UHGV virus genome: UHGV-1567883
Direction: 5' to 3' (one strand)
From: a virus
Length of the DNA: 16,300 bases
In this document: one piece after another, positions 100 to 16,194 of the stretch
Layout of the letters: every line of letters starts with the position of its first letter
Position numbering within the stretch: the stretch's first letter is position 1
Position numbers and translations under genes: made by a program
The notes under the pieces: model-generated
Told to the model about the DNA's origin: nothing
Seen by the model: only the letters and a program-made list of their open reading frames with translations
Databases searched by the model: none

Positions 100-1152
100 T
101 TATTTCCCCACCAGCTCGTTTATCTCTTTCACTGTCTGGTTAAACCGCTCTGACTCAAGCTCAACACCTAAGGCCCGACGCCCCAGCGCCATTGCTGCTT
201 TTATTGTGGAACCGGATCCCATAAAAAAATCAGCAACCAGATCACCAGGTCGACTACTGGCATTGATTATTTGCCTGAGCATATCCGCCGGTTTCTCACA
301 CGGATGTTTACCCGGGTAGAACTGAACGGGTTTATGCATCCAGACATCGGTATAAGGCACGGAGACTGATACGGAGAAATAGCGCCGGAGAGATTTAAAC
401 TCATCCAGCAATTCAGAATATTTGCGATTCAGTGAATCATAAGATGCCACCAGCTGGTGGTGTGGTTGTTCCAGTTGTTGTTCCTGAAACTTCTCTGCCG
501 CTATACGGGAAAACAGTGCCTGTAACTTCCGATAGTCAGCCTCATTCGGCAACTGCCACTGACTGGCACCAAACCAGTGGGAAACCATATTTTTCTTACC
601 TGTGGCTTCGGCAATTTGTTTTGCCGTTATACCCAGTTCGGCACGAGCATCCCTGAAATACGATATCAGCGGTGCCATTATGTGCTGTTTGAGTTCCCTT
701 TCTTTTGCCGCATAGCCGTCACTTTTGCCGCGATATGGCCCCTGGTAATGTTCAGCAAACAGAACGCGCTCTGTGGCAGGAAAATATGCGCGCAGACTTT
801 CTTTATTACACCCATTCCAACGTCCGGACGGCTTCGCCCAGATGATATGGTTAAGCACGTTGAAACGTTCACGCATCATGATCTCAATATCAGATGCCAG
901 GCGATGCCCACAGAACAGGTAAAGGCTTCCGGCAGGTTTTAACACCCGCCAGAACTGGGCCAGACAGTGGTCCAGCCACTTAAGGTAATCTTCGTCCCCT
1001 TTCCACTGATTGTCCCAACCGTTGGGTTTCACCTTGAAGTACGGCGGATCGGTAACAATCAGGTCAATGGAATCATCAGGCAGGGACTGAATAAAATGCA
1101 GGCAATCAGCGTTGATTAAATCAACACTGTTTATTTTTACAGTATTTTTCAT
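100..1152 (-). CDS. DNA methyltransferase, beta-class N6-adenine/N4-cytosine type (DPPY motif)
   Basis: 350 aa. SIDLIVTDPPY catalytic motif near the N-terminus and a C-terminal FMGSGST SAM-binding motif, the motif order of PF01555-type MTases (compare E. coli YhdJ). Central insertion of about 100 aa. Confidence 0.8.
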   Translation of the reverse strand: MKNTVKINSVDLINADCLHFIQSLPDDSIDLIVTDPPYFKVKPNGWDNQWKGDEDYLKWLDHCLAQFWRVLKPAGSLYLFCGHRLASDIEIMMRERFNVLNHIIWAKPSGRWNGCNKESLRAYFPATERVLFAEHYQGPYRGKSDGYAAKERELKQHIMAPLISYFRDARAELGITAKQIAEATGKKNMVSHWFGASQWQLPNEADYRKLQALFSRIAAEKFQEQQLEQPHHQLVASYDSLNRKYSELLDEFKSLRRYFSVSVSVPYTDVWMHKPVQFYPGKHPCEKPADMLRQIINASSRPGDLVADFFMGSGSTIKAAMALGRRALGVELESERFNQTVKEINELVGK

Positions 1153-1302
1153 GGATCAGTAAGCGTAACTCTGGTAGGCTCACTCTGCTTTTGCGCTAAA
1201 GCAGTGGGCCGTGGTTCGCTTGTGACCAGTAAGCATGAGCGAATGGCTGGCAGGTGCTACCAACACCCACCAGCCGCCCATTTTCACAGCAGGAAACCGC
1301 CA

Positions 1303-1521
1303 TTACTGGCAGCGTCTGAATTTATTCCCGTTATCCTTCGCCAGACCCGCCAGAACTAACTGAGTCAGTATTAACTGGCACCGGGCTTCGCTTACTCCGG
1401 TAGTTCTCGTCATCATGCGTGGCGTTACCCACTTGTCAGCAGGTAAGAAATGAAGGACTGCGGCGGCGGTTTCTGTCATATCTTGCTGTTTTAGCATGTC
1501 TTTTTCCCTTCTGGTTAACAT
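1303..1521 (-). CDS. Small hypothetical phage protein, possibly winged-helix; real start may be the internal ATG at 1497
   Basis: 72 aa ORF; the internal Met9 is preceded by AAGGGA at SD distance. First gene after the candidate late promoter/terminator. No recognisable catalytic motif. Confidence 0.4.
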   Translation of the reverse strand: MLTRREKDMLKQQDMTETAAAVLHFLPADKWVTPRMMTRTTGVSEARCQLILTQLVLAGLAKDNGNKFRRCQ

Positions 1522-1619
1522 GACATACCAATAACTCTTGTCTAAAAAGCCAGCAAGATAAAAGGTCAGTATTCACGACCACCAGCGTGTTTACTGTACT
1601 GCACCAAGTTTACAGGTAC

Positions 1620-1640
1620 AAAAAAACCGCTCAGCGGCGG
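1620..1640 (-). terminator. Candidate minus-strand intrinsic terminator (possible tR'-like)
   Basis: Minus strand reads CCGC-tga-GCGG followed by seven U (plus-strand A-run 1620-1626). The stem is short, so this is marginal. Confidence 0.3.
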
Positions 1641-1674
1641 GTTTAAGTTGTGTGGCGAAGTAACCACTCTTAAC

Positions 1675-1702
1675 AGCATATTTGATTTTTTACGATTGTA
1701 AA
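1675..1702 (-). promoter_or_regulatory. Candidate sigma70 promoter on the minus strand (possible late PR'-like)
   Basis: Minus strand TTTACA (1702..1697), 16-nt spacer, TATGCT (1680..1675); would start a roughly 50-nt transcript ending at the 1620-1640 hairpin. Confidence 0.25.
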
Positions 1703-1767
1703 CGGTTGATTATTCATCTCCAATAAAAATAATTGTGTAGGTATGCCCTTAACAATGGATAAGAAAC

Positions 1768-2214
1768 ATGAATAAAATGACTGTACTATTACTTAGCGCA
1801 ACTATCATTTCAGGTTGTACTTCTTCCGTACCATTGATAAAAAAAACTCAATCAGGAAAACCTGAGGGGGTTTATCAAAATACGACAAAAGATAAAGTCA
1901 AAGATGCCCTTGTGAATTACTGCAATAGTAGAGGGTTGATAATTTACAACGCTGATAACAGCAGTGTTATATGTGGTAAAGAACTGGAAGGCGGGTCTGC
2001 TGTTTTTGGACAAATGTTAATCGGCAATGCCTATTCAACAACCCCGGTATCAAAAGTCAGATTTACTATCGCTCAAGTTAATAACGATACAAAAGTGTGG
2101 GCCGATATGTGGATGGAAACTCAAATGGCAATGGGGCAAGTACAACAAATGGCTATAACAGACAACGCAAGCAAAAACACTATCCAACAACGTCTTGATG
2201 AATTAAAACCTTAA
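1768..2214 (+). CDS. Lipoprotein (signal peptide plus lipobox), AT-rich moron
   Basis: 148 aa; N-terminal MNKMTVLLLSATIISGC with lipobox ISGC; the gene is visibly AT-rich relative to its neighbours and convergent with Q. Confidence 0.7.
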   Translation: MNKMTVLLLSATIISGCTSSVPLIKKTQSGKPEGVYQNTTKDKVKDALVNYCNSRGLIIYNADNSSVICGKELEGGSAVFGQMLIGNAYSTTPVSKVRFTIAQVNNDTKVWADMWMETQMAMGQVQQMAITDNASKNTIQQRLDELKP

Positions 2215-2234
2215 GTAAATTAATTAAATAAAAT

Positions 2235-2256
2235 GGGGAGAATAAATCGACTCCCC
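2235..2256. terminator. Hairpin terminator between the convergent Q and lipoprotein genes
   Basis: GGGGAG-aataaatcga-CTCCCC with an A/T-rich tract on the 2221-2234 side (U-run for the minus-strand transcript). Confidence 0.5.
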
Positions 2257-2298
2257 ACACATTAAACTGATTCAATTACCCCCTCAATAAGAGGTCTT

Positions 2299-2664
2299 CT
2301 AACGATCCATCTCTAGCTCAATTTCTAACATCATTAACATGCCATCAACTACACCTTCAGCCTTTTGCAATAAACGCCCAACCCAGCAATCAGAACGCCC
2401 ATGTTTACGGGCAAGCGCCATAAACGTCATACCACCTACATAATAATCCACTAATAAATCGTGCAAATCGCTGTTGTTCTTTTTCAGGCGAGCCATGCAC
2501 CCACAAATGATCATCGCATCATCGTCACAACATTGCGGGCGGGATTTTACTTTTGAAGGGATTAGTCCTTTAAATCCTGCAGCAATAGACGACCAGGTGA
2601 CATCCTCGTGATTATTTGCCACCCATGCCCCCCAACGTTCAAGAACCATTTGAATATCACGCAT
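2299..2664 (-). CDS. Antitermination protein Q (phage 82 / QuuD-like family)
   Basis: Protein [14 protein letters not shown]...[19 protein letters not shown] matches my recollection of E. coli DLP12 QuuD. The ORF track starts at a TTG at 2679; the ATG at 2664 has GGAGAA 5-6 nt upstream. Confidence 0.75.
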
Positions 2665-2681
2665 CAACGTTCTCCACAAAA

Positions 2682-3677
2682 TCAGGCCAGCACGCCAATT
2701 GCCAGCGCACGATCGATAAAACGAAATATCAGCTCCAGCTGGGAGCCATACTTCTCTTCAAATGCCACGGTATCCGCATGCAGCTCGTCGTGATGCTTTC
2801 TGCACAAAGGCAACACAAAGAGGTCATGCGCTTTTGTACCCATTCCCCCCTGACCGTGGCCTATCAGGTGGTGGGGATCATCAGCAGGCTTTCCACAACA
2901 TGCACACGGCTGTGTCTTAACCCAGCGTGTGTACTTTTCATTAACCCAGCGGCGACGTTTTGGGCGTAACATAAAAGACTCCGGCGACTCCGGATCCACT
3001 TTCAGCGCCAGCACCTTTTTCGCCTTATCCTGGATGATGCTGGTGGCAGGAACCGAAGGCACAAGGTCACTTTCCCGGGTGACAGACGGCACAACAGGCT
3101 TCGGTAATCTCAGTGCCTTACGGGCTGCACTTTCCGGTAAGGCATCCGCCAAGTCATTACGAATCAGCCACCAGCACAGTTCCGGCATTGTCACAACGTG
3201 ACTGTCATCAAAACCGAGATCCCGACGCACAACAGACAACACCCAGCGGGCACAGTTATCCGTTGCCATTGATTCCAGCCGTTCCGTGAACTGATCGCGC
3301 AGCTGGTTATCGCAGTGCCAGCACAGACGGATTGCGCCCGGCGCGTGTCGCATTGTTGTCATGTTCTCGCTGTGCCAGTCGGAATGAGGCCACTGGCAGC
3401 CTTTTTCACGAAGTAACCAGCTTTCAAGACATTCCACGCCACCAGCACGACGGATCACTTCCTCATTGCGGAACACGGCCCGAACGGCAGGATCATCCGC
3501 CAGCGGTTGTGATGCCGCCGGAACGGCACCACTGGCGAAAGATGAATAACGTTCCGGCTCAGGCTCCAGCAGGACACGCCCCTGCATAAACAGGGGCATC
3601 AGCTCTGAACCTGGCCTGAACAATACGATCCCCATACGCGGGGCAATTTCAGGGGTCAGTAGTGCTCTCACGGTCAC
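2682..3677 (-). CDS. DUF968-type phage protein with C-terminal HNH-like Cys/His motif
   Basis: 331 aa; C-terminal [28 protein letters not shown]...[11 protein letters not shown] (CxxC ... HH ... C..HH). Position equivalent to nin-region nuclease genes. Confidence 0.65.
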
Positions 3678-3678
3678 C

Positions 3679-4488
3679 TCAATGAACGGTATCGAGCAGC
3701 TTTAACAGCTCAGGGAATCGGGATTCGAAGAAATGCGGCTGCGTCTCGCGCGGATTTGCGGGACTGGTGATGTTCTTGCCGAACATGCAACCTTTCGCTG
3801 TCAGCGACCAGAATTTTTTGATGTTGTTAATCGCGGTACGGCTGTATCGTTCGCGTTGTTCAACGATCCCCAGCTTCGCCATCTGGTGATATGCCTGATT
3901 AGCCGTAAGGCGGATACCATACTGTTTCAGCAGTGCACTCAGCGACAGCGTAGGACGACTTGAGCCATCAGGCGCGTCAGCAGGAGCATCAATGGCATAG
4001 CGCGGTGCCAGATTCGGTAAGCCAACAGCCTCCTGGAGTTTCTGACAGGCACCAAGCACTGAAGAGTTAGACAGGTTTAATTCCCGGCGCATAAAGTCCA
4101 GCAGAATCACACCAGCCTGCATCTTGTCAGCAGCCTGTCCGGATAATTTTTCCGGTGCGCTGGTTACCATGTCGAAAGTACGGATCACCTTCAGATGGAA
4201 TGACGGGCTGATCCACATTGCATAGGCATACACCAGTTCCTTGCAGACATACGTTCCCCGTTCATTTCCCCCATGAATCACACTCACCGGGTCAACACCC
4301 AAATTCTGGGTGTTGGTCAATTCATGAACAAGCTCAACAGTTTGTTGGCTGGAAAGAAACTTTCCTGGCTCCTTGGTTCTGGCATTTGCACCAGATGCTA
4401 CTGCTGCGCGATGCAGATCGTTCAGGCTGTAACGCCCATAAGCATCACGACGAACTTCAATACCATCAATGACCATCAGATTATTCAT
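3679..4488 (-). CDS. KilA-N domain protein (antirepressor-like N-terminal DNA-binding domain)
   Basis: 269 aa; N-terminal IDGIEVRRDAYGRYSLNDLHRAA ... KELVYAYAMWISPSFHLKVIR is characteristic of KilA-N. The C-terminal half is unassigned. Confidence 0.7.
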   Translation of the reverse strand: MNNLMVIDGIEVRRDAYGRYSLNDLHRAAVASGANARTKEPGKFLSSQQTVELVHELTNTQNLGVDPVSVIHGGNERGTYVCKELVYAYAMWISPSFHLKVIRTFDMVTSAPEKLSGQAADKMQAGVILLDFMRRELNLSNSSVLGACQKLQEAVGLPNLAPRYAIDAPADAPDGSSRPTLSLSALLKQYGIRLTANQAYHQMAKLGIVEQRERYSRTAINNIKKFWSLTAKGCMFGKNITSPANPRETQPHFFESRFPELLKLLDTVH

Positions 4489-4507
4489 ACTTCGTTTCTC
4501 CTCTTAA

Positions 4508-4897
4508 TCAGGCGGCTGCACCCGCCGGTTTCTCATACTTACTGATAGTGATCTCGACCTTCCCTTTCGGGATAACCGGTCCCCACTCCACCAGCATTCT
4601 TTTCACCTGTCTGTCGTCTTCCCACACACCCGCGTGGGTCAGGGCGTCAAACAGCGCCTTGTTATAGTTGTCCAGATCGCGGATCCGGTTATCCGGAGGA
4701 AACAACACGATCTCCACTGAAGCAGGTGCCGACGTTGGTTTCGGCAGACGACGTAACTGCTCAACTATTGCTGCGCACGCCGCGCTCTGAAATTTTCGCC
4801 CCGCCTCGCTTATCAGGCTCTTACCAGCAAATGCCCCTTTGTTGGGGTGTCGCCAGTACGTGTTCACACTGGGCGGGAAAGGCAGGATCAACTTCAT
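4508..4897 (-). CDS. rusA: Holliday-junction resolvase RusA
   Basis: 129 aa; LPFPPSVNTYWRH ... RDLDNYNKALFDALT ... DD.QV matches RusA signature residues. Start overlaps the upstream stop (ATGA). Confidence 0.85.
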   Translation of the reverse strand: MKLILPFPPSVNTYWRHPNKGAFAGKSLISEAGRKFQSAACAAIVEQLRRLPKPTSAPASVEIVLFPPDNRIRDLDNYNKALFDALTHAGVWEDDRQVKRMLVEWGPVIPKGKVEITISKYEKPAGAAA

Positions 4898-5220
4898 ACT
4901 TTCAGGCCCCTCTCATGTAACCAGTGGGCTGCACGCAGCCTGGCGTTCTCCTCACCGGCAAGCAGTGCGCGGATGATACCGACCGCTTCGCTGTCGTCGT
5001 CCTTCACTGCGGTATGAAGCGTTATCCCCCGGGCCACGCCACGCTTTATCGTGATGACGCCTTTTTTCTCCAGTGCGCGAAGATGCTCCACCGCTGCATT
5101 CACCGAACGGTATCCCAGCATGGTTGCCACCTCCTGATTGGTTGGCGGAAAGCCACGCTCTTGCTGGTAAGAAATCAGCATATCCAGCACCTGCTGCTGG
5201 CATTGAGTTAACGTCGTCAT
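4894..5220 (-). CDS. LexA N-terminal DNA-binding-domain homologue lacking the S24 peptidase domain
   Basis: 108 aa; LTQCQQQVLDMLISYQQERGFPPTNQEVATMLGYRSVNAAVEHLRALEKKGVITIKRGVARGITL aligns motif-for-motif with the LexA winged-helix domain. No Ser/Lys catalytic domain. Translationally coupled (ATGA) to dam upstream and rusA downstream. Confidence 0.7.
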   Translation of the reverse strand: MTTLTQCQQQVLDMLISYQQERGFPPTNQEVATMLGYRSVNAAVEHLRALEKKGVITIKRGVARGITLHTAVKDDDSEAVGIIRALLAGEENARLRAAHWLHERGLKV

Positions 5221-5870
5221 GCCGCCATCTCCCTGACAAGTTTTTCTGCCTGCTGGCGAACCTGCGCCAGAAACGCCTCACCACATGCCTCAAGTTCATC
5301 GCGCCCGATGTAGCTGATTGCCGGTCCCTTCCAGGTCTTGTCGAAAACAGCAATAGCACCAGCGAAGAAAGCGCCTGTCGGCACCTGCTTCTCATCCTTC
5401 GGGATAAACCAGGCAGGCAGTTCAAAACCAATACGCCCGCGAATAAAAGCAATATGGTCCGCATCTTCCGGCCACCACACTTCGCTGGTGGCAGCTTTGA
5501 TCAGGAAAACATAGCGCCCGCCCTTATCACGCATGGCACTGGCATGTTTCATGATGTAACGCATGCCGGTGATGTATTGCCCCTCATGCTGACTGGCGCG
5601 GCTGTATGGGGGATTACCAAAGGCAGCACCTTTAAGCTCCGCAAGACGTTCTGACCAGTCATGCGCCAGCGCGTTGTCTTCCGCCGTGTAATACGCGGCA
5701 CATTTGGCGTTATCACCGTCAGTGAACAGATCCAGAACAAACGGACCAAACAAGGTGTTAATTCCCCAGAAAATGTTGTCCGGCGTGCGCCACTGATCGC
5801 CCACTTCCTTCAGTTCATGGGCTGGTTTGTTCCGCAGTTCTACCAGCGCCTGGCAATATTTATTACTCAT
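5217..5870 (-). CDS. Phage-type DNA N6-adenine methyltransferase (small Dam-like family)
   Basis: 217 aa; FGNPPY catalytic motif; size and layout of the phage N-6-adenine methyltransferase family (compare CPS-53 yfdM). Confidence 0.8.
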   Translation of the reverse strand: MSNKYCQALVELRNKPAHELKEVGDQWRTPDNIFWGINTLFGPFVLDLFTDGDNAKCAAYYTAEDNALAHDWSERLAELKGAAFGNPPYSRASQHEGQYITGMRYIMKHASAMRDKGGRYVFLIKAATSEVWWPEDADHIAFIRGRIGFELPAWFIPKDEKQVPTGAFFAGAIAVFDKTWKGPAISYIGRDELEACGEAFLAQVRQQAEKLVREMAA

Positions 5871-5962
5871 TAAGCCCCCACGTAAAAAGCATCCGCAATG
5901 TCTCCGGAAGTACAGCCCGGATGGGCTTCAATGAATTTCTGAACGTCATTTAACAGACTCAT
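5870..5962 (-). CDS. Unannotated 30-codon ORF translationally coupled between the replication gene and dam
   Basis: ATG at 5962..5960 lies 2 nt after the O-like stop with GGGGG upstream; its TAA overlaps the dam ATG by 1 nt. Peptide MSLLNDVQKFIEAHPGCTSGDIADAFYVGA. Confidence 0.3.
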   Translation of the reverse strand: MSLLNDVQKFIEAHPGCTSGDIADAFYVGA

Positions 5963-5964
5963 GA

Positions 5965-6957
5965 TCACCCCCTGAATCCTGCCGGGATCTGGCTGTAGTC
6001 CACGTTGTCGTAACTGGCTTTGAAGTACGGGTCTTCACGTTTTTCTGTGTGCGTGCTGACGGACGGCGATAAGCGCAGGGAAAGCTCATCCCATTTTTCC
6101 CGCAACTTCGACGGGCTGAGCACGTTACGGCACCAGAACGGATCGCGGCTGACGCGGCTGTACATCTCGCAGATTTGTTTGTGAGTACGACCATCCTGCA
6201 CACACATCAGGCGAATTTCGTTTGCCCATGCTGTCCAGTTCGGTTCTTTGGGACGAACCACCTCGCCGTCACATTCGGCGGCCTGCTCGTACAGGGCGAT
6301 GATTTTTTTCCAGAGCCACTGTGCGCAGGTCAAATCATCCTGCGTTCCCCACTGGCGCTTTTTAGGGCTGAATACAACCGCATCAGGATGGCGAGTTAAA
6401 AACTCCTGTTCAGCCGTTTGCGTGTCCGGTTGCGAAGCGTCCGGACGAGAAGAGGTTTTATTCTCTGTAGTAATCTCTGTTGTATTCTCTGTAAGATCAT
6501 TGGGCCATTTTGACCCGATGACAGCGTGTCGTTTTGAACCAATGGATCGTGTCATTTTGCGCCCATCCATCAGGTCACTTTGACCCGATGGAGAAGTGCA
6601 TTTTGACCTGATGGATTCGTTCACTTTGACCTCTTCTAAAAGCTCACTTTCATAGTTGATCGTGTAGAAGTTGGTCATGTCACGCTTCGATTTATTGAGT
6701 TGCTCGCGACGCAAAACCCCAAGTGATTTCAGGCTTGCAAATGTGCGTTTCAGAGTGGACTCTGACCAGAACGGAAACTGCTCCAGCCACTGTTCTGTCG
6801 TGTTATAAACCCAGCGAATTCCGCCATGCTCAGTGCCTGAATTCGTTTCATTCAGCCAGTAATGAAGCTGCTGCAACACAATTGCCTCATTCAGACCAAT
6901 ACGGCATGCAAGATCACGATTTATCACAATGGGCTGGGATGTCATTAACAGGCTCAT
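5965..6957 (-). CDS. Replication initiator (lambda O-like role) with DnaT-like C-terminal domain; origin iterons inside the coding sequence
   Basis: 330 aa; N-terminal wHTH-like region; internal iterons encode repeated IGSK; the C-terminus ...YSQIPAGFRG resembles the E. coli DnaT C-terminus (...SQIPPGFRG, from recollection). SD GAGG 7 nt upstream of the ATG. Confidence 0.65.
   Translation of the reverse strand: MSLLMTSQPIVINRDLACRIGLNEAIVLQQLHYWLNETNSGTEHGGIRWVYNTTEQWLEQFPFWSESTLKRTFASLKSLGVLRREQLNKSKRDMTNFYTINYESELLEEVKVNESIRSKCTSPSGQSDLMDGRKMTRSIGSKRHAVIGSKWPNDLTENTTEITTENKTSSRPDASQPDTQTAEQEFLTRHPDAVVFSPKKRQWGTQDDLTCAQWLWKKIIALYEQAAECDGEVVRPKEPNWTAWANEIRLMCVQDGRTHKQICEMYSRVSRDPFWCRNVLSPSKLREKWDELSLRLSPSVSTHTEKREDPYFKASYDNVDYSQIPAGFRG
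6457..6494. repeat. Three tandem 12-bp AT-rich repeats (TTCTCTGTA-type) beside the iterons; candidate DNA unwinding element
   Basis: TTCTCTGTA at 6461, ATCTCTGTT at 6473, TTCTCTGTA at 6485 (12-bp period), inside the O-like gene. Confidence 0.55.
6506..6660. repeat. Iteron array (candidate phage origin of replication): 6-7 direct repeats, 23-24 bp period
   Basis: CATTTTGACCCGATGA 6506, CGTTTTGAACCAATGGA 6530, CATTTTGCGCCCATCCA 6553, CACTTTGACCCGATGGA 6576, CATTTTGACCTGATGGA 6599, CACTTTGACCTC 6622, degenerate CACTTTCAT 6645. Confidence 0.7.
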
Positions 6958-7126
6958 GACCGACCTCTATTTCCCTGAATTTACGACGAAACTGTTCGAG
7001 CGGACTGAAGCATTCATGTTCATAGCCTTCACGGAGGTAGATAACCCGTTGTGTTTCCGGCTCCCAACGAATGACTCTGACGGGCACTCCGTAGTGATCT
7101 TTGAACCAGCGGTTAACTTGTCGCAA
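6914..7126 (-). CDS. Small phage protein, DUF4222-like; TTG start with strong SD
   Basis: 70 aa; AAGGAG 8 nt upstream of the TTG; ...[30 protein letters not shown]... resembles DUF4222 proteins (recollection). Overlaps the O start by 44 nt and the 6967..7305 ORF in another frame. Confidence 0.45.
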
Positions 7127-7305
7127 AGGACTGTCTCCTTCTGCCGGTTGAAATCACCCACAGCCCACTCTGCAAAGCTGTGGGTTACAATTTCCCTGTC
7201 ACCTGGTACATTCACTGCATAGCAATACTCCACCTTCGCTTTTCCACCCGGTACAGGAAGCGCAATCAGTTGCGAGCGACGGTAGTGTGTTGTTAAACTG
7301 TTCAT
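6967..7305 (-). CDS. Hypothetical protein; conflicts with the overlapping 70-aa ORF
   Basis: 112 aa; ATG overlaps the upstream stop (ATGA) and its stop sits just before the O-gene SD, which is good operon geometry, but 160 nt overlap the 6914..7126 ORF. Confidence 0.4.
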
Positions 7306-11858: not shown

Positions 11859-12065
11859 ATGCTGAACCTCGATTGCGTTCCAATCTCAACTTATTGCAAA
11901 GAAACTGGCGAAACTCCTGAAGCAATAAACAAACGTGTACAGCGCGGTGTTTGGCGTGAAGGTGTTCAGGTTTTAAAGGTTGAAGGCGTTAAGGAGAGGT
12001 GGATTGATCTTAGTGAGGTTGCAAAATGGGCCAGACAAAACTGCTCAAACTACCGCGCGGCGTAA
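11859..12065 (+). CDS. xis: Excisionase (Xis-like winged helix)
   Basis: 68 aa from the ATG at 11859 (GTGGAGA SD); directly upstream of and overlapping int by 40 nt, as in lambda xis-int. Confidence 0.6.
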   Translation: MLNLDCVPISTYCKETGETPEAINKRVQRGVWREGVQVLKVEGVKERWIDLSEVAKWARQNCSNYRAA

Positions 12066-13192
12066 CAATCAGGAAACACCGCCAGGGCGAAACGATCAAT
12101 ATAACTTTCACCTACAAAGGAGTTAAATGTCGTGAGCCTCTTTCCAATCTGGAAGTAACACCAAAGAACATTAAATACGCCGAGCGCACACTCGGCGAAA
12201 TTCATAATAAGATCGAAAGGGGAACATTCATTTATGCGGAATATTTTCCCCGTTCTGCTCGTTTGAAAATTTTTGGTAATGCTGCTGCAGGCAAAACGGT
12301 AAAAATGTACCTGGACGAATACCTTGAAATCTGCGAAACGAGAAAACTTTCACCCTCTACGATTGGTGGTTATAAAAAATGCCGTAGTGCGTTAGCCTCA
12401 CTCCACATTTGCCCTGCAAGTGAATTAACACCAGCAATCCTGAAAGCGTGGATTCAAAGCCAGAAAACGACCTTAAAAACAATTCGCAACCAGTTATCTT
12501 TCCTGCGGTCAGCACTTGATGAAGCCGTAACCGATGGGGTACTTCAAATTAACCCCGTATCGTTGGTAACTGCTTCGCGCTACCAAAGTGATAAGTCAGA
12601 AGCAGAAAGCAGCTACGTGGTTGATCCGCTATCACCAGCAGAAGTTGATGCATTACTAACAGCAGCCGGAAACAAACAATGGGAGAATCTGTTCCGGTTC
12701 GCTATACATACAGGCCTGCGTAGTTCTGAATTATGTGCCCTTCGATGGCGTGATATCGACTTTGTTGGAAAAACTGCCCATGTCCAGAGCGCAAGTGTTG
12801 TCGGTGTTATCAAAGGAACAAAGACAAAAGCCGGTACTCGTAAAGTTGAACTGACAGAAGATGCAATGTTGGCGCTGATAAATCAGAAGCCATTTACATT
12901 CATGAAGGATGCTACTGTCTTTGAAGATCCAAAGACCAATAAGCCCTGGGCAAGTGCTGATGCAATCAGGAAAAAAGCATGGGTGCCAACATTGCGAAAA
13001 GCAGGTATTCGTTACAGAAATCCATATCAAACCAGGCATACATTCGCCACCCGCCATATCAGCCGGGGAGCAAACCTGTTTTGGCTTGCAGCTCAAATGG
13101 GGCATAAAGGGCCGGAGATGCTTTTCAGGCACTATGGCTCATATCTGAAGGAATATGATGGACAAACAAGCTTGAAGAAGATAACAATATAA
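12026..13192 (+). CDS. int: Tyrosine integrase (lambda Int family with N-terminal arm-binding domain)
   Basis: 388 aa; catalytic R in TGLRSSEL, H/R in QTRHTFATRH, Tyr in LFRHYGSY; GAGG SD 7 nt upstream. Confidence 0.9.
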   Translation: MGQTKLLKLPRGVTIRKHRQGETINITFTYKGVKCREPLSNLEVTPKNIKYAERTLGEIHNKIERGTFIYAEYFPRSARLKIFGNAAAGKTVKMYLDEYLEICETRKLSPSTIGGYKKCRSALASLHICPASELTPAILKAWIQSQKTTLKTIRNQLSFLRSALDEAVTDGVLQINPVSLVTASRYQSDKSEAESSYVVDPLSPAEVDALLTAAGNKQWENLFRFAIHTGLRSSELCALRWRDIDFVGKTAHVQSASVVGVIKGTKTKAGTRKVELTEDAMLALINQKPFTFMKDATVFEDPKTNKPWASADAIRKKAWVPTLRKAGIRYRNPYQTRHTFATRHISRGANLFWLAAQMGHKGPEMLFRHYGSYLKEYDGQTSLKKITI

Positions 13193-13250: not shown

Positions 13251-14984
13251 ATGGCAAATCAAATTACCAAACTAAAAAATATAAATGTTGTGAAGTTTCG
13301 CGGACTGAAAAATATAAACATCGAGTTTGGTTCTCGCCTAACTGTTATTTGTGGTAAAAATGGCACATCTAAATCCACAATTCTTGGCATTATCGCCCAA
13401 ATATTTAGCTTTACAAAGGACTTTACCAAAAACCCTGAGACTGATTTAACACAATATAAAACATTAACAAATGGCAGCTTCAAGTCAGCTTTCAGCGAAC
13501 ATTTTAGGCTTTCAGAACAATTTGATGTTCCTGGTTCAATGGACGTCAAAATTAGTGTCTATGATGGTGCATCGAACAAACATCTTGAAAAACTAACATT
13601 AGGTTTATACAGCTACAGTGACAGAGATAAATCTAGGCCTGTAGTCAGGGGAAATGATTCAATACCGGAAAAAAACCAAAGTAGAAACGTTACTCATCCT
13701 GTTATTTTTTTAAGCTTAGCACGACTTCTTCCTATTACATTAAGGACTGATTACTCAACACGGGATGTTCAGTACATCAATGAAAATTCTGATGAAATCA
13801 GAATGATGAGTAACCAACTCTTACTAAAAAACAATGGAAGCTCAGTAACAGCAACAAAAGGTACTATCGATTCAATGGTTGTCCATGGTGACAATTATGA
13901 TCACCAATCAGTATCTGTTGGTGAAGATAATGTTGGACAATTAATCCAGGCAATTTTTTCATTTAAAAGATTGAAGGAAACTTATTCTGATTATCATGGC
14001 GGAATATTGTTAATTGATGAAGCCGATGCAGGTCTTTTCCCTGCGGCACAGTTAGAGCTAATTAATATTCTAACTAAAGCAGCAAAACAATACGATCTGC
14101 AAATAATCATGACCTCGCACTCTCCATTAATAATAGAGGATATCTATAATCGTTCAAAACAAGATAGTGATAGCTTTAAAACAATATATCTTACAGACAC
14201 ATATGGAGATATTAAAACAAAGAATAATCTTTCATGGACAGATATCCACGCTGATTTACATGTTGAAACTGTAAAAATTAATGATGACATTTGTCTTCCA
14301 AAGGCAAATGTATATTTTGAAGACAAAGAAGGTTTCGACTTTTTCAAACAATTGATAACAGATCGAAAAATAAATAAAATATTAAATCCATTAGGAAATA
14401 TAAATATTAGCTGCTCTGCCATGCTTGACTTAATGGCAAGAAAAATACCAGAATTTACAGCTAAAAGCTTGATCGTCTTAGACGGTGATGTTGTTCACGA
14501 CAACAGTGCTAATGCAAAAAAAGCCAAAAAAGAAAAAAACTTATGTTTGCTTCCAAGCACCTTACCTCCAGACCAAATGATTTTTGAGTTTTTATATAAT
14601 TTACCACCTGATGATGCATATTGGGAAAATAAAAATAAATTTACAAAAGCTGTTTTTATGAAAACAGCTAAAGACATAATTGCAACGCTAAAGATTGGTA
14701 ACGCTCCGATTGATTTAAAAATCCTTATAGATAATTATAAAAAAGTTAACAAAAACCATGGAGGGAGAGTTAGAAAACTGTTTAAAGATTTTGCACATAC
14801 GACTCAATTTCAGGCCCAAGTCAAAGGAAGAGTTAAAGATAACCCATATCGATATTGGGTCGAGAAAAATCCTGTTCAATCGGATAGCTTCAAGAATGAA
14901 CTAATAAAGAGTCTTAAAGTTATTATGATAAGTGGACATGGTGTCGATTCTGCTACCATCTCATCATATCTGTCAGATAACTAA
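13251..14984 (+). CDS. OLD-family-like nuclease candidate: N-terminal ABC-type ATPase plus C-terminal TOPRIM-like domain
   Basis: Walker A CGKNGTSKST (nt 13350-13379), Walker B/D-loop ILLIDEAD (14014-14028), H-loop TSHSP (14112-14126), TOPRIM-like EGFD (14328-14339) and LIVLDGD (DxD at 14481-14489). The gene is visibly AT-rich. Alternative start at 13200. Confidence 0.7.
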   Translation: MANQITKLKNINVVKFRGLKNINIEFGSRLTVICGKNGTSKSTILGIIAQIFSFTKDFTKNPETDLTQYKTLTNGSFKSAFSEHFRLSEQFDVPGSMDVKISVYDGASNKHLEKLTLGLYSYSDRDKSRPVVRGNDSIPEKNQSRNVTHPVIFLSLARLLPITLRTDYSTRDVQYINENSDEIRMMSNQLLLKNNGSSVTATKGTIDSMVVHGDNYDHQSVSVGEDNVGQLIQAIFSFKRLKETYSDYHGGILLIDEADAGLFPAAQLELINILTKAAKQYDLQIIMTSHSPLIIEDIYNRSKQDSDSFKTIYLTDTYGDIKTKNNLSWTDIHADLHVETVKINDDICLPKANVYFEDKEGFDFFKQLITDRKINKILNPLGNINISCSAMLDLMARKIPEFTAKSLIVLDGDVVHDNSANAKKAKKEKNLCLLPSTLPPDQMIFEFLYNLPPDDAYWENKNKFTKAVFMKTAKDIIATLKIGNAPIDLKILIDNYKKVNKNHGGRVRKLFKDFAHTTQFQAQVKGRVKDNPYRYWVEKNPVQSDSFKNELIKSLKVIMISGHGVDSATISSYLSDN

Positions 14985-15064: not shown

Positions 15065-15964
15065 ATGCGTTTTAACACCCCACTTCGCTATCCTGGCGGT
15101 AAAGGCAAGCTTGCAAATTTCATGCTTCGGATTATTGAAGAAAATAATCTTTCGCCTATACATTATGCCGAACCATATGCTGGGGGTGCTGGTTTAGCAT
15201 TGAAACTGTTACATCTAAATGCAGCTGAAAAAATCATCCTTAATGATATTAATATTTCTGTTTATGCTTTTTGGCACAGTGTATTAAATCATGCAGATCA
15301 ATTATGTTCTTTAATTGAAAGAACAGAAGTTACAATGGATGAATGGTTTAGGCAGAAAGATATAATTAATAATCCTAAAGACCATGATCTTTTAACAATT
15401 GGTTTCTCAACCTTTTTTCTCAATAGAACAAATCGTTCTGGAATATTAAAAGGTGGAGTAATTGGCGGTAAAAATCAAGAAGGGAAATGGAAGCTTGACG
15501 CTCGCTATAATAAGAGTGATTTGATTTCTCGAATCCATAAAATATCAGAAAATCGTCACAGAATAGATTTATATAACATGGATGCAATTGATTTCATTAA
15601 AAAAATAGTTACTCAATTGCCACAAAACTCATTAACATATTTGGATCCACCTTATTACATAAAAGGTAAAGGTTTATATATCAACCATTATGATCATGAT
15701 GATCATGTTAGGGTTGCAAAAGTCGTACAGAATAATATTAAAACACCTTGGATTGTTTCTTACGATAACACTCCTGAGATCCAAGCTATGTATAAGACAT
15801 CATCATTAGTATATGGAATAAACTACAGTGCTCAAGATCGGTACAAAGGATCTGAGGTAATGTTCTTCAGTGAACGATTGAAAATCTTTAAAACAGATGA
15901 TCCAACTAAGGTAAAAGCGCCTGTATTTAAAAGAGGATGTGTTGACGACCACATCCAGACATAA
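15065..15964 (+). CDS. Dam-family (D12 class) DNA N6-adenine methyltransferase
   Basis: 299 aa; aligns by motif to E. coli Dam: PGGK near the N-terminus, SAM motif EPYAGGAG, NRTNRSG region, catalytic DPPY. AT-rich. Confidence 0.85.
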   Translation: MRFNTPLRYPGGKGKLANFMLRIIEENNLSPIHYAEPYAGGAGLALKLLHLNAAEKIILNDINISVYAFWHSVLNHADQLCSLIERTEVTMDEWFRQKDIINNPKDHDLLTIGFSTFFLNRTNRSGILKGGVIGGKNQEGKWKLDARYNKSDLISRIHKISENRHRIDLYNMDAIDFIKKIVTQLPQNSLTYLDPPYYIKGKGLYINHYDHDDHVRVAKVVQNNIKTPWIVSYDNTPEIQAMYKTSSLVYGINYSAQDRYKGSEVMFFSERLKIFKTDDPTKVKAPVFKRGCVDDHIQT

Positions 15965-16036
15965 AAGGAGCCGCAAAAGATCCGCAGAATAAAATGGTTA
16001 GTATTAATCGTTTTATTTCAGCTAATTATAAAAATA

Positions 16037-16075
16037 CGGACTCGGGTTCAACTCCCGCCAGCCAATCATGATTGG
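16037..16075 (+). other. tmRNA (ssrA) 3'-end-like fragment plus 14-bp perfect palindrome: candidate att core
   Basis: CGGACTCGGGTTCAACTCCCGCCAGC (16037-16062) matches my recollection of the E. coli ssrA 3' T-arm/acceptor region except one base and lacks the terminal TCCACCA; followed by CCAATCATGATTGG (16062-16075). Confidence 0.4.
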
Positions 16076-16194
16076 ACGGTGTAAGGACTACACCAACAAA
16101 AACAGGAAGTTATAAGTCTCAGCAGGACACCGACCAGACGGTGAGGAGACAAAAAAGGATACGCAACGGAGTCGCGACTCCCTATGACATTAAA

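Follow-up and report, generated by a model that had tools for sequence, protein, structure and literature searches.

The virus genome sequence UHGV-1567883, whose full 16,300 nucleotides are referred to here as the window, is the early/late-regulatory half and the integration end of a lambdoid (mEp460/cdtI-like) Escherichia coli prophage in ssrA. The window encodes three DNA methyltransferases (MTases 1, 2 and 3), each belonging to a different N6-adenine family. MTase 1 and MTase 2 are of known kinds that are common in E. coli. MTase 3 is paired with an ATPase resembling the OLD nucleases, and this two-gene cassette is a widespread, uncharacterised, effector-swapped variant of PD-λ-5, a two-gene ParB/HEPN plus methyltransferase system with experimentally validated anti-phage activity that was recovered by functional selection from a prophage of strain ECOR7 and gives unusually broad protection (PMC9519451). 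The genes at issue are the following:

100-1152, minus strand: MTase 1, 350 amino acids (aa); PF01555 (N6_N4_Mtase), E = 2.2e-42, residues 29-341
5217-5870, minus strand: MTase 2, 217 aa; PF05869 (Dam), E = 9.7e-46, 156 bits against a cut-off of 28.1
13251-14984, plus strand: OLD-like ABC ATPase, partner of MTase 3, 577 aa; AAA_15/AAA_21/SMC_N
15065-15964, plus strand: MTase 3, 299 aa; PF02086 (D12 class), E = 1.8e-19

All three MTase open reading frames (ORFs) are uninterrupted, and their catalytic and S-adenosylmethionine (SAM)-binding motifs are intact. In MTase 1, the DPPY motif (residues 35-38) precedes the FxGxG motif (FMGSG, 310-314), which is the beta-class order; MTase 2 has NPPY at residues 86-89; and in MTase 3 the SAM motif E36-P-Y-A-G-G-A-G43 is followed by DPPY at 194-197, which is the alpha-class order. 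An initial annotation of the window had reported three intact MTase ORFs within 16 kb, under a range (100-5870) that spans MTase 1 and MTase 2 only, with MTase 3 at 15065-15964. Its gene coordinates proved exact. Its labels (beta-class DPPY, NPPY and D12-class) agree with the matches to PF01555, PF05869 and PF02086 and with the order of the motifs, and it had correctly placed MTase 1 on the late side (the gene is downstream of Q), MTase 2 in the replication/nin block, and MTase 3 in a cargo island (a patch of 30-35% GC after the integrase). Three MTases in 16 kb is a true local enrichment, even though MTase 1 and MTase 2 are a standard pair.

MTase 3 lies in low-GC cargo between the integrase gene and attR, 80 nucleotides (nt) downstream of the gene for the 577-aa ABC ATPase. 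Its match to the PADLOC model PD-Lambda-5_B (E = 2e-124, covering positions 1-282 of a 291-position profile) is on a par with that of a canonical family member (E = 1.4e-121). The protein is 51% identical to the MTase of a canonical ParB plus MTase PD-λ-5 locus and 58% identical to an ATPase-linked copy in a second E. coli prophage. DPPY is kept in 81 of 81 members of the MTase 3 family, and the SAM motif residues are conserved in at least 97%. The corresponding gene in E. coli JJ1886 bears the REBASE-style name M.Eco1886ORF14565P and the RefSeq label “DNA adenine methylase”. The initial annotation had treated MTase 3 as free-standing Dam-family cargo, a description that does not survive: the protein scores 56.6 bits against the TIGR00571 Dam subfamily, under the cut-off of 114.85, and it is the conserved partner of an OLD-like ATPase. 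An orthodox Dam identity was therefore rejected, D12-class membership notwithstanding, and because of this score neither GATC specificity nor the suitability of DpnI/MboI assays should be assumed. In an Stx-type phage of E. coli O121 strain 2015C-3107 (4901-7205 of the extracted locus), a PD-λ-5_B-like MTase gene directly follows Q and is convergent with a ParB/Srx gene; the clade thus also uses the late-operon moron site that MTase 1 occupies in the window.

The association of MTase 3 with its ATPase extends far beyond E. coli. The ATPase family has more than 1100 database matches, some of them named “ATP-dependent nuclease”. When one genome per species was taken, 80 ATPase loci were obtained, spanning Gamma- and Betaproteobacteria, Geobacter, Bacteroidota, Mycobacterium, Listeria and Acidobacteria. 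A PD-λ-5_B-like MTase gene is found near the ATPase gene in 78 of these, and the remaining two loci end at a contig edge. In about 70 of the 80, the MTase gene is directly downstream on the same strand, after a gap of 41-133 nt. The linkage of ATPase and MTase is obligate and ancient. The second E. coli prophage mentioned above, an e14-like element at icd, has the ATPase-MTase pair at its int/att end; its ATPase is 47% identical to that of the window, and both of its proteins align with their window counterparts over the full length. About 85 complete E. coli genomes carry the pair, some of them from strains of sequence type 131 (ST131) clade C.

A reverse search from the MTase in viral contigs gave a complementary picture. 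Among members at least 38% identical to MTase 3, the neighbor is ATPase-like in about 21 cases and ParB-like in about 30; more distant D12 MTases have neither. The PD-λ-5_B MTase clade can thus be seen as a module, with effectors of two or more types as alternative companions. Two viral contigs, L096 (828-4825) and L097 (2944-6183), have an MTase with ParB-like and ATPase-like neighbors both, and these may be three-gene versions that unite the two effector types.

The ATPase itself comprises an ABC ATPase domain (residues 1 to about 340), a Toprim-like region (about 345-450) and a helical C-terminal domain (about 450-577). Its best matches among PADLOC defense models are PtuA (E = 3.8e-20), AriA and GajA, and its best full-length Foldseek matches are GajA and TsOLD. 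PD-Lambda-5_A, the ParB/HEPN component, is absent from its 25 best PADLOC hits, whereas the partner protein of the canonical PD-λ-5 locus matches that model at E = 5.9e-168; assignment of the ATPase to PD-Lambda-5_A was rejected on these grounds. Across 28 homologs, the P-loop (G35-K-N-G-T-S-K41-S42), a signature-like motif (S222xGEDN227), Walker B (D256-E257) and the H-loop (H290) are invariant, so that the Walker A, signature-like, Walker B and H-loop elements of an OLD-type N-terminal ABC ATPase are all present. In the C-terminal half, E357-D358, D411xD413 and P440-D-Q442 are invariant in the same homologs; the invariant Glu and the DxD lie at the ends of beta-strands, as in Toprim domains, although the Toprim match is weak. 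Pfam scans of this half gave nothing, either with the single sequence or with 18 homologs at E ≤ 1, and a profile search against sequences in the PDB matched at the P-loop and Walker B regions only. The protein is best described as an ATPase of the OLD type carrying a divergent, Toprim-like nuclease domain (an assignment of moderate confidence) and, beyond it, an additional helical tail. The all-helical C-terminal domain (window 14600-14984, plus strand) has the invariant residues R508, F511, K512, G526, N531, P532 and W536; it matched no family and is a candidate surface for contact with the MTase or with DNA.

The other two MTases have well-described relatives. MTase 1 matches the PADLOC model MTase_II (PDLC03265) at E = 3e-152 and is identical to M.EcoGII at 281 of 349 positions (81%, E = 0) without large gaps, a few of the mismatches possibly being character-recognition errors, as the M.EcoGII sequence was taken from machine-read text in the supplement of PMC11551740. 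MTase 1 shares with M.EcoGI and M.EcoGII the beta-class architecture, the length (350 versus 349 aa) and the type of host element, a lambdoid prophage, and differs from M.EcoGII in 19% of its residues; it belongs to the M.EcoGI/GII family, and sequence-non-specific N6-methyladenine (m6A) activity is predicted for it by homology. M.EcoGI and M.EcoGII are prophage-encoded beta-class MTases of E. coli O104:H4 that are 95% identical to each other and methylate adenine whatever its context; their constitutive production is toxic (PMC5778455). Neither is expressed in the lysogen, and when expressed they block every adenine-sensitive restriction enzyme tried (12 or more); the proposal of the authors was that they are activated as the prophage enters the lytic cycle, to overcome host restriction (PMC5778455). 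In the ST131 strain EC958, an M.EcoGI homolog is untranscribed, and no methylation motif was detected for it (PMC4659465). The JJ1886 homolog of MTase 1 is named M.Eco1886ORF14455P in REBASE-derived tables and appears as a 1053-nt gene in Table S2 of Forde 2015. Genes like that for MTase 1 are present in 1255 of 5426 complete E. coli genomes (23%).

Three circumstances place MTase 1 in a Q-dependent late operon: it is downstream of Q, a candidate pR'/tR' lies between Q and MTase 1, and in JJ1886 the gene is directly upstream of a holin gene. The features concerned are as follows:

1626-1722, minus strand: candidate pR' (1722-1675) and tR' (1638-1626), from consensus scans; between Q and MTase 1
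2299-2679, minus strand: Q-like antiterminator, transcribed toward MTase 1, which lies downstream; phrog_79 “anti-termination protein Q-like”, E = 1.9e-51

The candidate tR' is a GC-rich hairpin with a T-run (1638-1626). Two promoter-like sites precede it, and its location is the usual one in a lambdoid Q-dependent late operon; the pR'/tR' assignment is putative. Between Q and MTase 1, on the plus strand (1768-2214), there is also a 148-aa ORF that matches phrog_3152 (E = 1e-104) and has no Pfam, NCBIfam or PADLOC match. With its low-GC (0.38) patch and its strand opposite to the late operon, it looks like a moron. Upstream, the interval that separates Q from the nin region (2682-4488, minus strand) contains two genes, one for a DUF968/HNHc_6 protein (331 aa) and one for a KilA-N domain protein (269 aa). 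The otherwise similar prophage of JJ1886 has a different, longer antiterminator gene (753 nt) in the place of Q, which indicates mosaicism here.

MTase 2 is encoded in the nin region, with the O-like replication gene on one side and RusA/Q on the other. Besides its Pfam match, it scores 255.6 bits (cut-off 97.05) against the TIGR01712 equivalog “phage N-6-adenine-methyltransferase”. Its stop codon overlaps by 4 nt the start of a gene for a LexA-family repressor (4894-5220, minus strand, 108 aa, phrog_362), and in E. coli genomes both genes are annotated together beneath the match; this points to possible translational coupling. Copies 99.5% identical to MTase 2 are found in phages 1720a-02 and Stx2a_WGPS2, and one 70% identical in Salmonella phage ST64B; similar genes occur in 2102 of 5426 complete E. 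coli genomes (39%). A GATC target is listed for two Dam homologs of prophages, M.EcoVT2Dam and M.EcoGV (PMC6602927). MTase 2 shares with M.EcoVT2Dam of VT2-Sakai (PF05869/TIGR01712) a score above the equivalog cut-off, the NPPY motif and the position in the nin region, and differs in being only 31% identical to the VT2-Sakai nin-region methylase (orf32) and about 40 aa longer. No closer characterised homolog was found, and the literature on M.EcoGV gave neither a sequence nor a length. By analogy with these relatives, MTase 2 may be GATC-specific, at the level of the family. Genes like those for MTase 1 and MTase 2 are both present in several related phages, and the pair is standard for lambdoid phages of the mEp460/cdtI/1720a-02 type rather than specific to the window. 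The occurrence of several MTases together in lambdoid and Stx prophages has already been documented (PMC6602927, PMC4659465).

The position of the cassette relative to the prophage depends on the integration end, where two features are informative:

12026-13192, plus strand: tyrosine integrase; PF12167 (Arm-DNA-bind_2), E = 5e-23; PF00589, E = 3.4e-16
16036-16095, plus strand: attR, the prophage boundary; duplicated ssrA (tmRNA) 3' end plus about 35 nt

By Pfam and PHROG profile matches, the order of genes is that of a lambdoid prophage. The minus strand encodes the Q-like antiterminator, DUF968/HNH, KilA-N, RusA, the LexA-like repressor, MTase 2, an O-like replication protein and a cII-like protein, and the plus strand carries cI-side genes, YfdQ/YfdR-like genes and the tyrosine integrase. 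In megablast searches, mEp460, cdtI, vB_EcoM-720R4 and several Stx2c phages cover 47-61% of the window at 96-98% identity, and this coverage stops at about 11,600. The segment from the integrase to the end of the window is found at 100% identity in E. coli MS21324, for which the literature search found neither a methylome nor a strain paper, and at 99.8% in the ST131 strains JJ1886 and JJ1887. The GC content falls to 0.30-0.35 from 13,200 onward. In JJ1886 the prophage sits between ssrA and glaH, and attR came to light in an alignment of the window to the far end of that prophage, where the 3' terminus of ssrA is intact. The attR copy lacks the CTCCA of the CCA end and has 3 more mismatches to the attL copy of JJ1886; scans of the window for tRNA/tmRNA genes and with Rfam gave no match. 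The 18-mer core of att occurs once in the window, against 0.01 occurrences expected. Because this copy of the ssrA end is attR, the window up to about 16,036 is prophage, the low-GC tail included; the possibility that the cassette is a separate island beyond the prophage was rejected, as attR lies past it. At the far end of the same prophage in JJ1886, an RnlA/RnlB toxin-antitoxin pair adjoins ssrA/attL (L085, 9139-10564). RnlA/RnlB is a known anti-phage system, and the prophage thus has defense cargo at both ends.

The explanation that best fits these findings is that the window carries two MTases for the self-protection of the phage and one that belongs to a defense system together with an OLD-like ATPase-nuclease; we give it a probability of about 0.62. 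The sequence analysis establishes the identities of the genes, the intactness of their motifs, the limits of the prophage and the obligate link between ATPase and MTase. We infer that MTase 1, which lies after Q and before the lysis genes on the Q-dependent late transcript, and MTase 2, in the nin region of the pR transcript, would be silent in the lysogen and produced only upon induction or infection. They would then methylate replicating phage DNA before packaging, and the methylated progeny would evade adenine-methylation-sensitive restriction in the next host. The genes for the ATPase and MTase 3 make up a two-gene cargo operon of low GC content, located between int and attR, that would be active in the lysogen. 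The cassette lies outside the lytic operons, in the classic moron position beyond int, and most likely serves the lysogen. For the pair, we infer nuclease activity and a methylation-dependent discrimination of self from non-self: MTase 3 would place its mark on the DNA of host and prophage alike, at its own motif, and the ATPase-nuclease would attack unmarked incoming DNA in an ATP-dependent manner; an abortive component, such as has been proposed for PD-λ-5, may contribute. The cassette is an effector-swapped relative of PD-λ-5, with the same MTase clade and the ParB/HEPN protein replaced. The logic resembles that of restriction-modification (R-M), as the nuclease is never without the MTase, the active site of the MTase is strictly conserved, and the cloning of PD-λ-5 made use of a strain lacking the mrr region. 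The choice of this host, a derivative of MG1655 (PMC9519451), hints at active non-Dam methylation by PD-λ-5.

Several observations weigh against this explanation. No reader domain or target recognition domain was found in the ATPase, and no nuclease of the OLD family is known to sense methylation. PD-λ-5 acts best against T-even phages (PMC9519451), whose DNA is hypermodified, and is in this respect atypical for a simple R-M system; given this preference, the MTase may have a role other than self-marking. In the surroundings of the cassette, scans for promoters and terminators yielded no more than in shuffled sequence (13 promoters found versus 15.2 expected). As for the two phage MTases, MTase 1 differs from M.EcoGII at 19% of positions, so that its non-specificity is a prediction, and 31% identity to the GATC-listed VT2 enzyme leaves the GATC specificity of MTase 2 a family-level reading.

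These findings bear differently on the further claims of the initial annotation. Its picture of layered anti-restriction protection fits MTase 1 and MTase 2, whose families have published roles of this kind, and does not extend to MTase 3, which has an ATPase partner in 78 of 80 loci and belongs to the PD-λ-5 clade. The suggestion that the enzymes differ in specificity is very likely correct, with a predicted non-specific adenine MTase (MTase 1), a GATC-type enzyme (MTase 2) and one outside the Dam subfamily (MTase 3). Its proposed methylome comparison of the lysogen with a cured strain would mislead: MTase 1 and MTase 2, by analogy with related prophages, are likely invisible in the lysogen because they are in cI/Q-controlled operons, and such a comparison would probably miss them both.

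The main competitor to the defense explanation is that the pair is an abortive infection (Abi) or PARIS-like sensor, in which the ATPase senses a phage trigger (an anti-restriction protein or a DNA end) and the Toprim nuclease cuts host tRNA or DNA, with the MTase acting as a regulator, an antitoxin, or a decoy for phage anti-methylase or anti-restriction factors. The closest structural and profile relatives of the ATPase, namely AriA/AriB, GajA, PtuA and the retron OLDs, are trigger-activated abortive infection proteins (PMC12839542, PMC10568477), Vassallo et al. label PD-λ-5 “RM+Abi”, a system acting on T-even phages that escape ordinary R-M (PMC9519451), and the lack of a recognizable methylation-reading domain in the ATPase is as this account would have it. 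Yet the catalytic and SAM motifs are complete in all 81 MTases, which argues that methyl transfer itself is needed; the absence of any ATPase without an MTase in the 80-locus census is a classic sign of a nuclease that needs a protective modification; and the mrr-region deletion in the PD-λ-5 cloning host (PMC9519451) points the same way. An Abi/PARIS-like sensor is judged unlikely, while being the most serious of the competing accounts.

Considerably less probable is the simpler proposal that all three MTases are anti-restriction devices of the phage and that the ATPase beside MTase 3 is unrelated cargo. It draws on the presence of three intact adenine MTases, on the RefSeq label of MTase 3, which names merely a DNA adenine methylase, and on the wide view of orphan MTases in phages and prophages as anti-restriction tools (PMC5778455). 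It does not account for an ATPase linkage seen in 78 of 80 loci across phyla, mostly chromosomal and not obviously phage, or for the location of MTase 3 outside the lytic operons and past int, with a match to a defense profile as strong as that of the canonical member; moreover, a conserved partner resembling a nuclease would be superfluous to an MTase that serves anti-restriction. The proposal that the pair is mainly a selfish addiction module, stabilizing the prophage or island by post-segregational killing with a minor role in phage defense, is slightly more improbable still. Gene pairs of the Type II R-M kind do act as addiction modules, the cassette sits at the prophage end beside int/att in two different prophages, and the other end of the JJ1886 prophage has the toxin-antitoxin pair RnlAB; against this, the related PD-λ-5 protects strongly and broadly when cloned (PMC9519451), and addiction and defense can coexist.

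If MTase 3 belongs to a defense cassette, MTase gene counts overstate the anti-restriction capacity of a prophage, as some MTases belong to systems by which the lysogen is defended against other phages. Defense-finder rules that demand a ParB/HEPN partner would miss the ATPase-MTase pair. In ST131 clade C carriers, the pair may shape susceptibility to phages, which matters for phage therapy, and may add a strain-specific m6A motif. The question is also raised of how an OLD-type nuclease could be coupled to DNA methylation. A bolder proposal is that the cassette represents a further widespread OLD class, in which a Toprim nuclease is restrained on self DNA by dedicated D12 m6A, and thus a new ATP-dependent type of R-M, module-interchangeable with the ParB/HEPN effector of PD-λ-5; this is tentative and, in our estimate, rather doubtful. 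If true, prophages of E. coli, among them those of pandemic ST131 strains, have such a system at their int-att end.

Comparison with known systems places the cassette between several of them. PD-λ-5, described as a compacted prophage RM+Abi system (PMC9519451), has its canonical example here in a P2-like prophage hot spot (L003). It shares with the window cassette the MTase clade, the arrangement of an upstream effector with the MTase about 70-80 nt downstream, and the location in a prophage accessory hot spot. The effector in the window is an OLD-like ABC-ATPase/Toprim protein and not ParB/HEPN; component B is thus present in the window and component A, a ParB/HEPN gene next to B, is not, and the cassette falls outside PD-λ-5 proper because component A is replaced.

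The ATPase was also compared with the OLD nucleases (P2 Old, T. scotoductus OLD, GajA of Gabija and the retron-Eco8 OLD) and with AriA/AriB of PARIS. Like these proteins, the window protein begins with an ABC ATPase that contains a beta-rich insertion; its C-terminal region, putatively Toprim-like, carries an invariant Glu and DxD. The differences are that sequence similarity is limited to the P-loop and Walker B, that the Toprim match is weak, and that the window protein has an extra helical C-terminal domain of about 130 aa. A 2023 review of OLD proteins gives as contexts a single gene, a UvrD helicase and a retron, with class 4 mentioned in passing, and nowhere mentions a methyltransferase (PMC10568477). 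The context of the window ATPase, an obligate D12 MTase, corresponds to neither the single gene, the UvrD helicase, the retron nor the AriA/AriB split. A literature search for an “AAA ATPase + DNA adenine methylase” prophage defense pair found none, although earlier notice of it in a comparative-genomic study is possible. In contrast to Type II R-M systems, which rely on PD-(D/E)XK or HNH restriction endonucleases, the putative nuclease of the cassette is ATP-dependent and OLD-like; as in those systems, a nuclease-like gene adjoins an MTase gene, and the nuclease is never found without the MTase, while the MTase clade also occurs with other partners.

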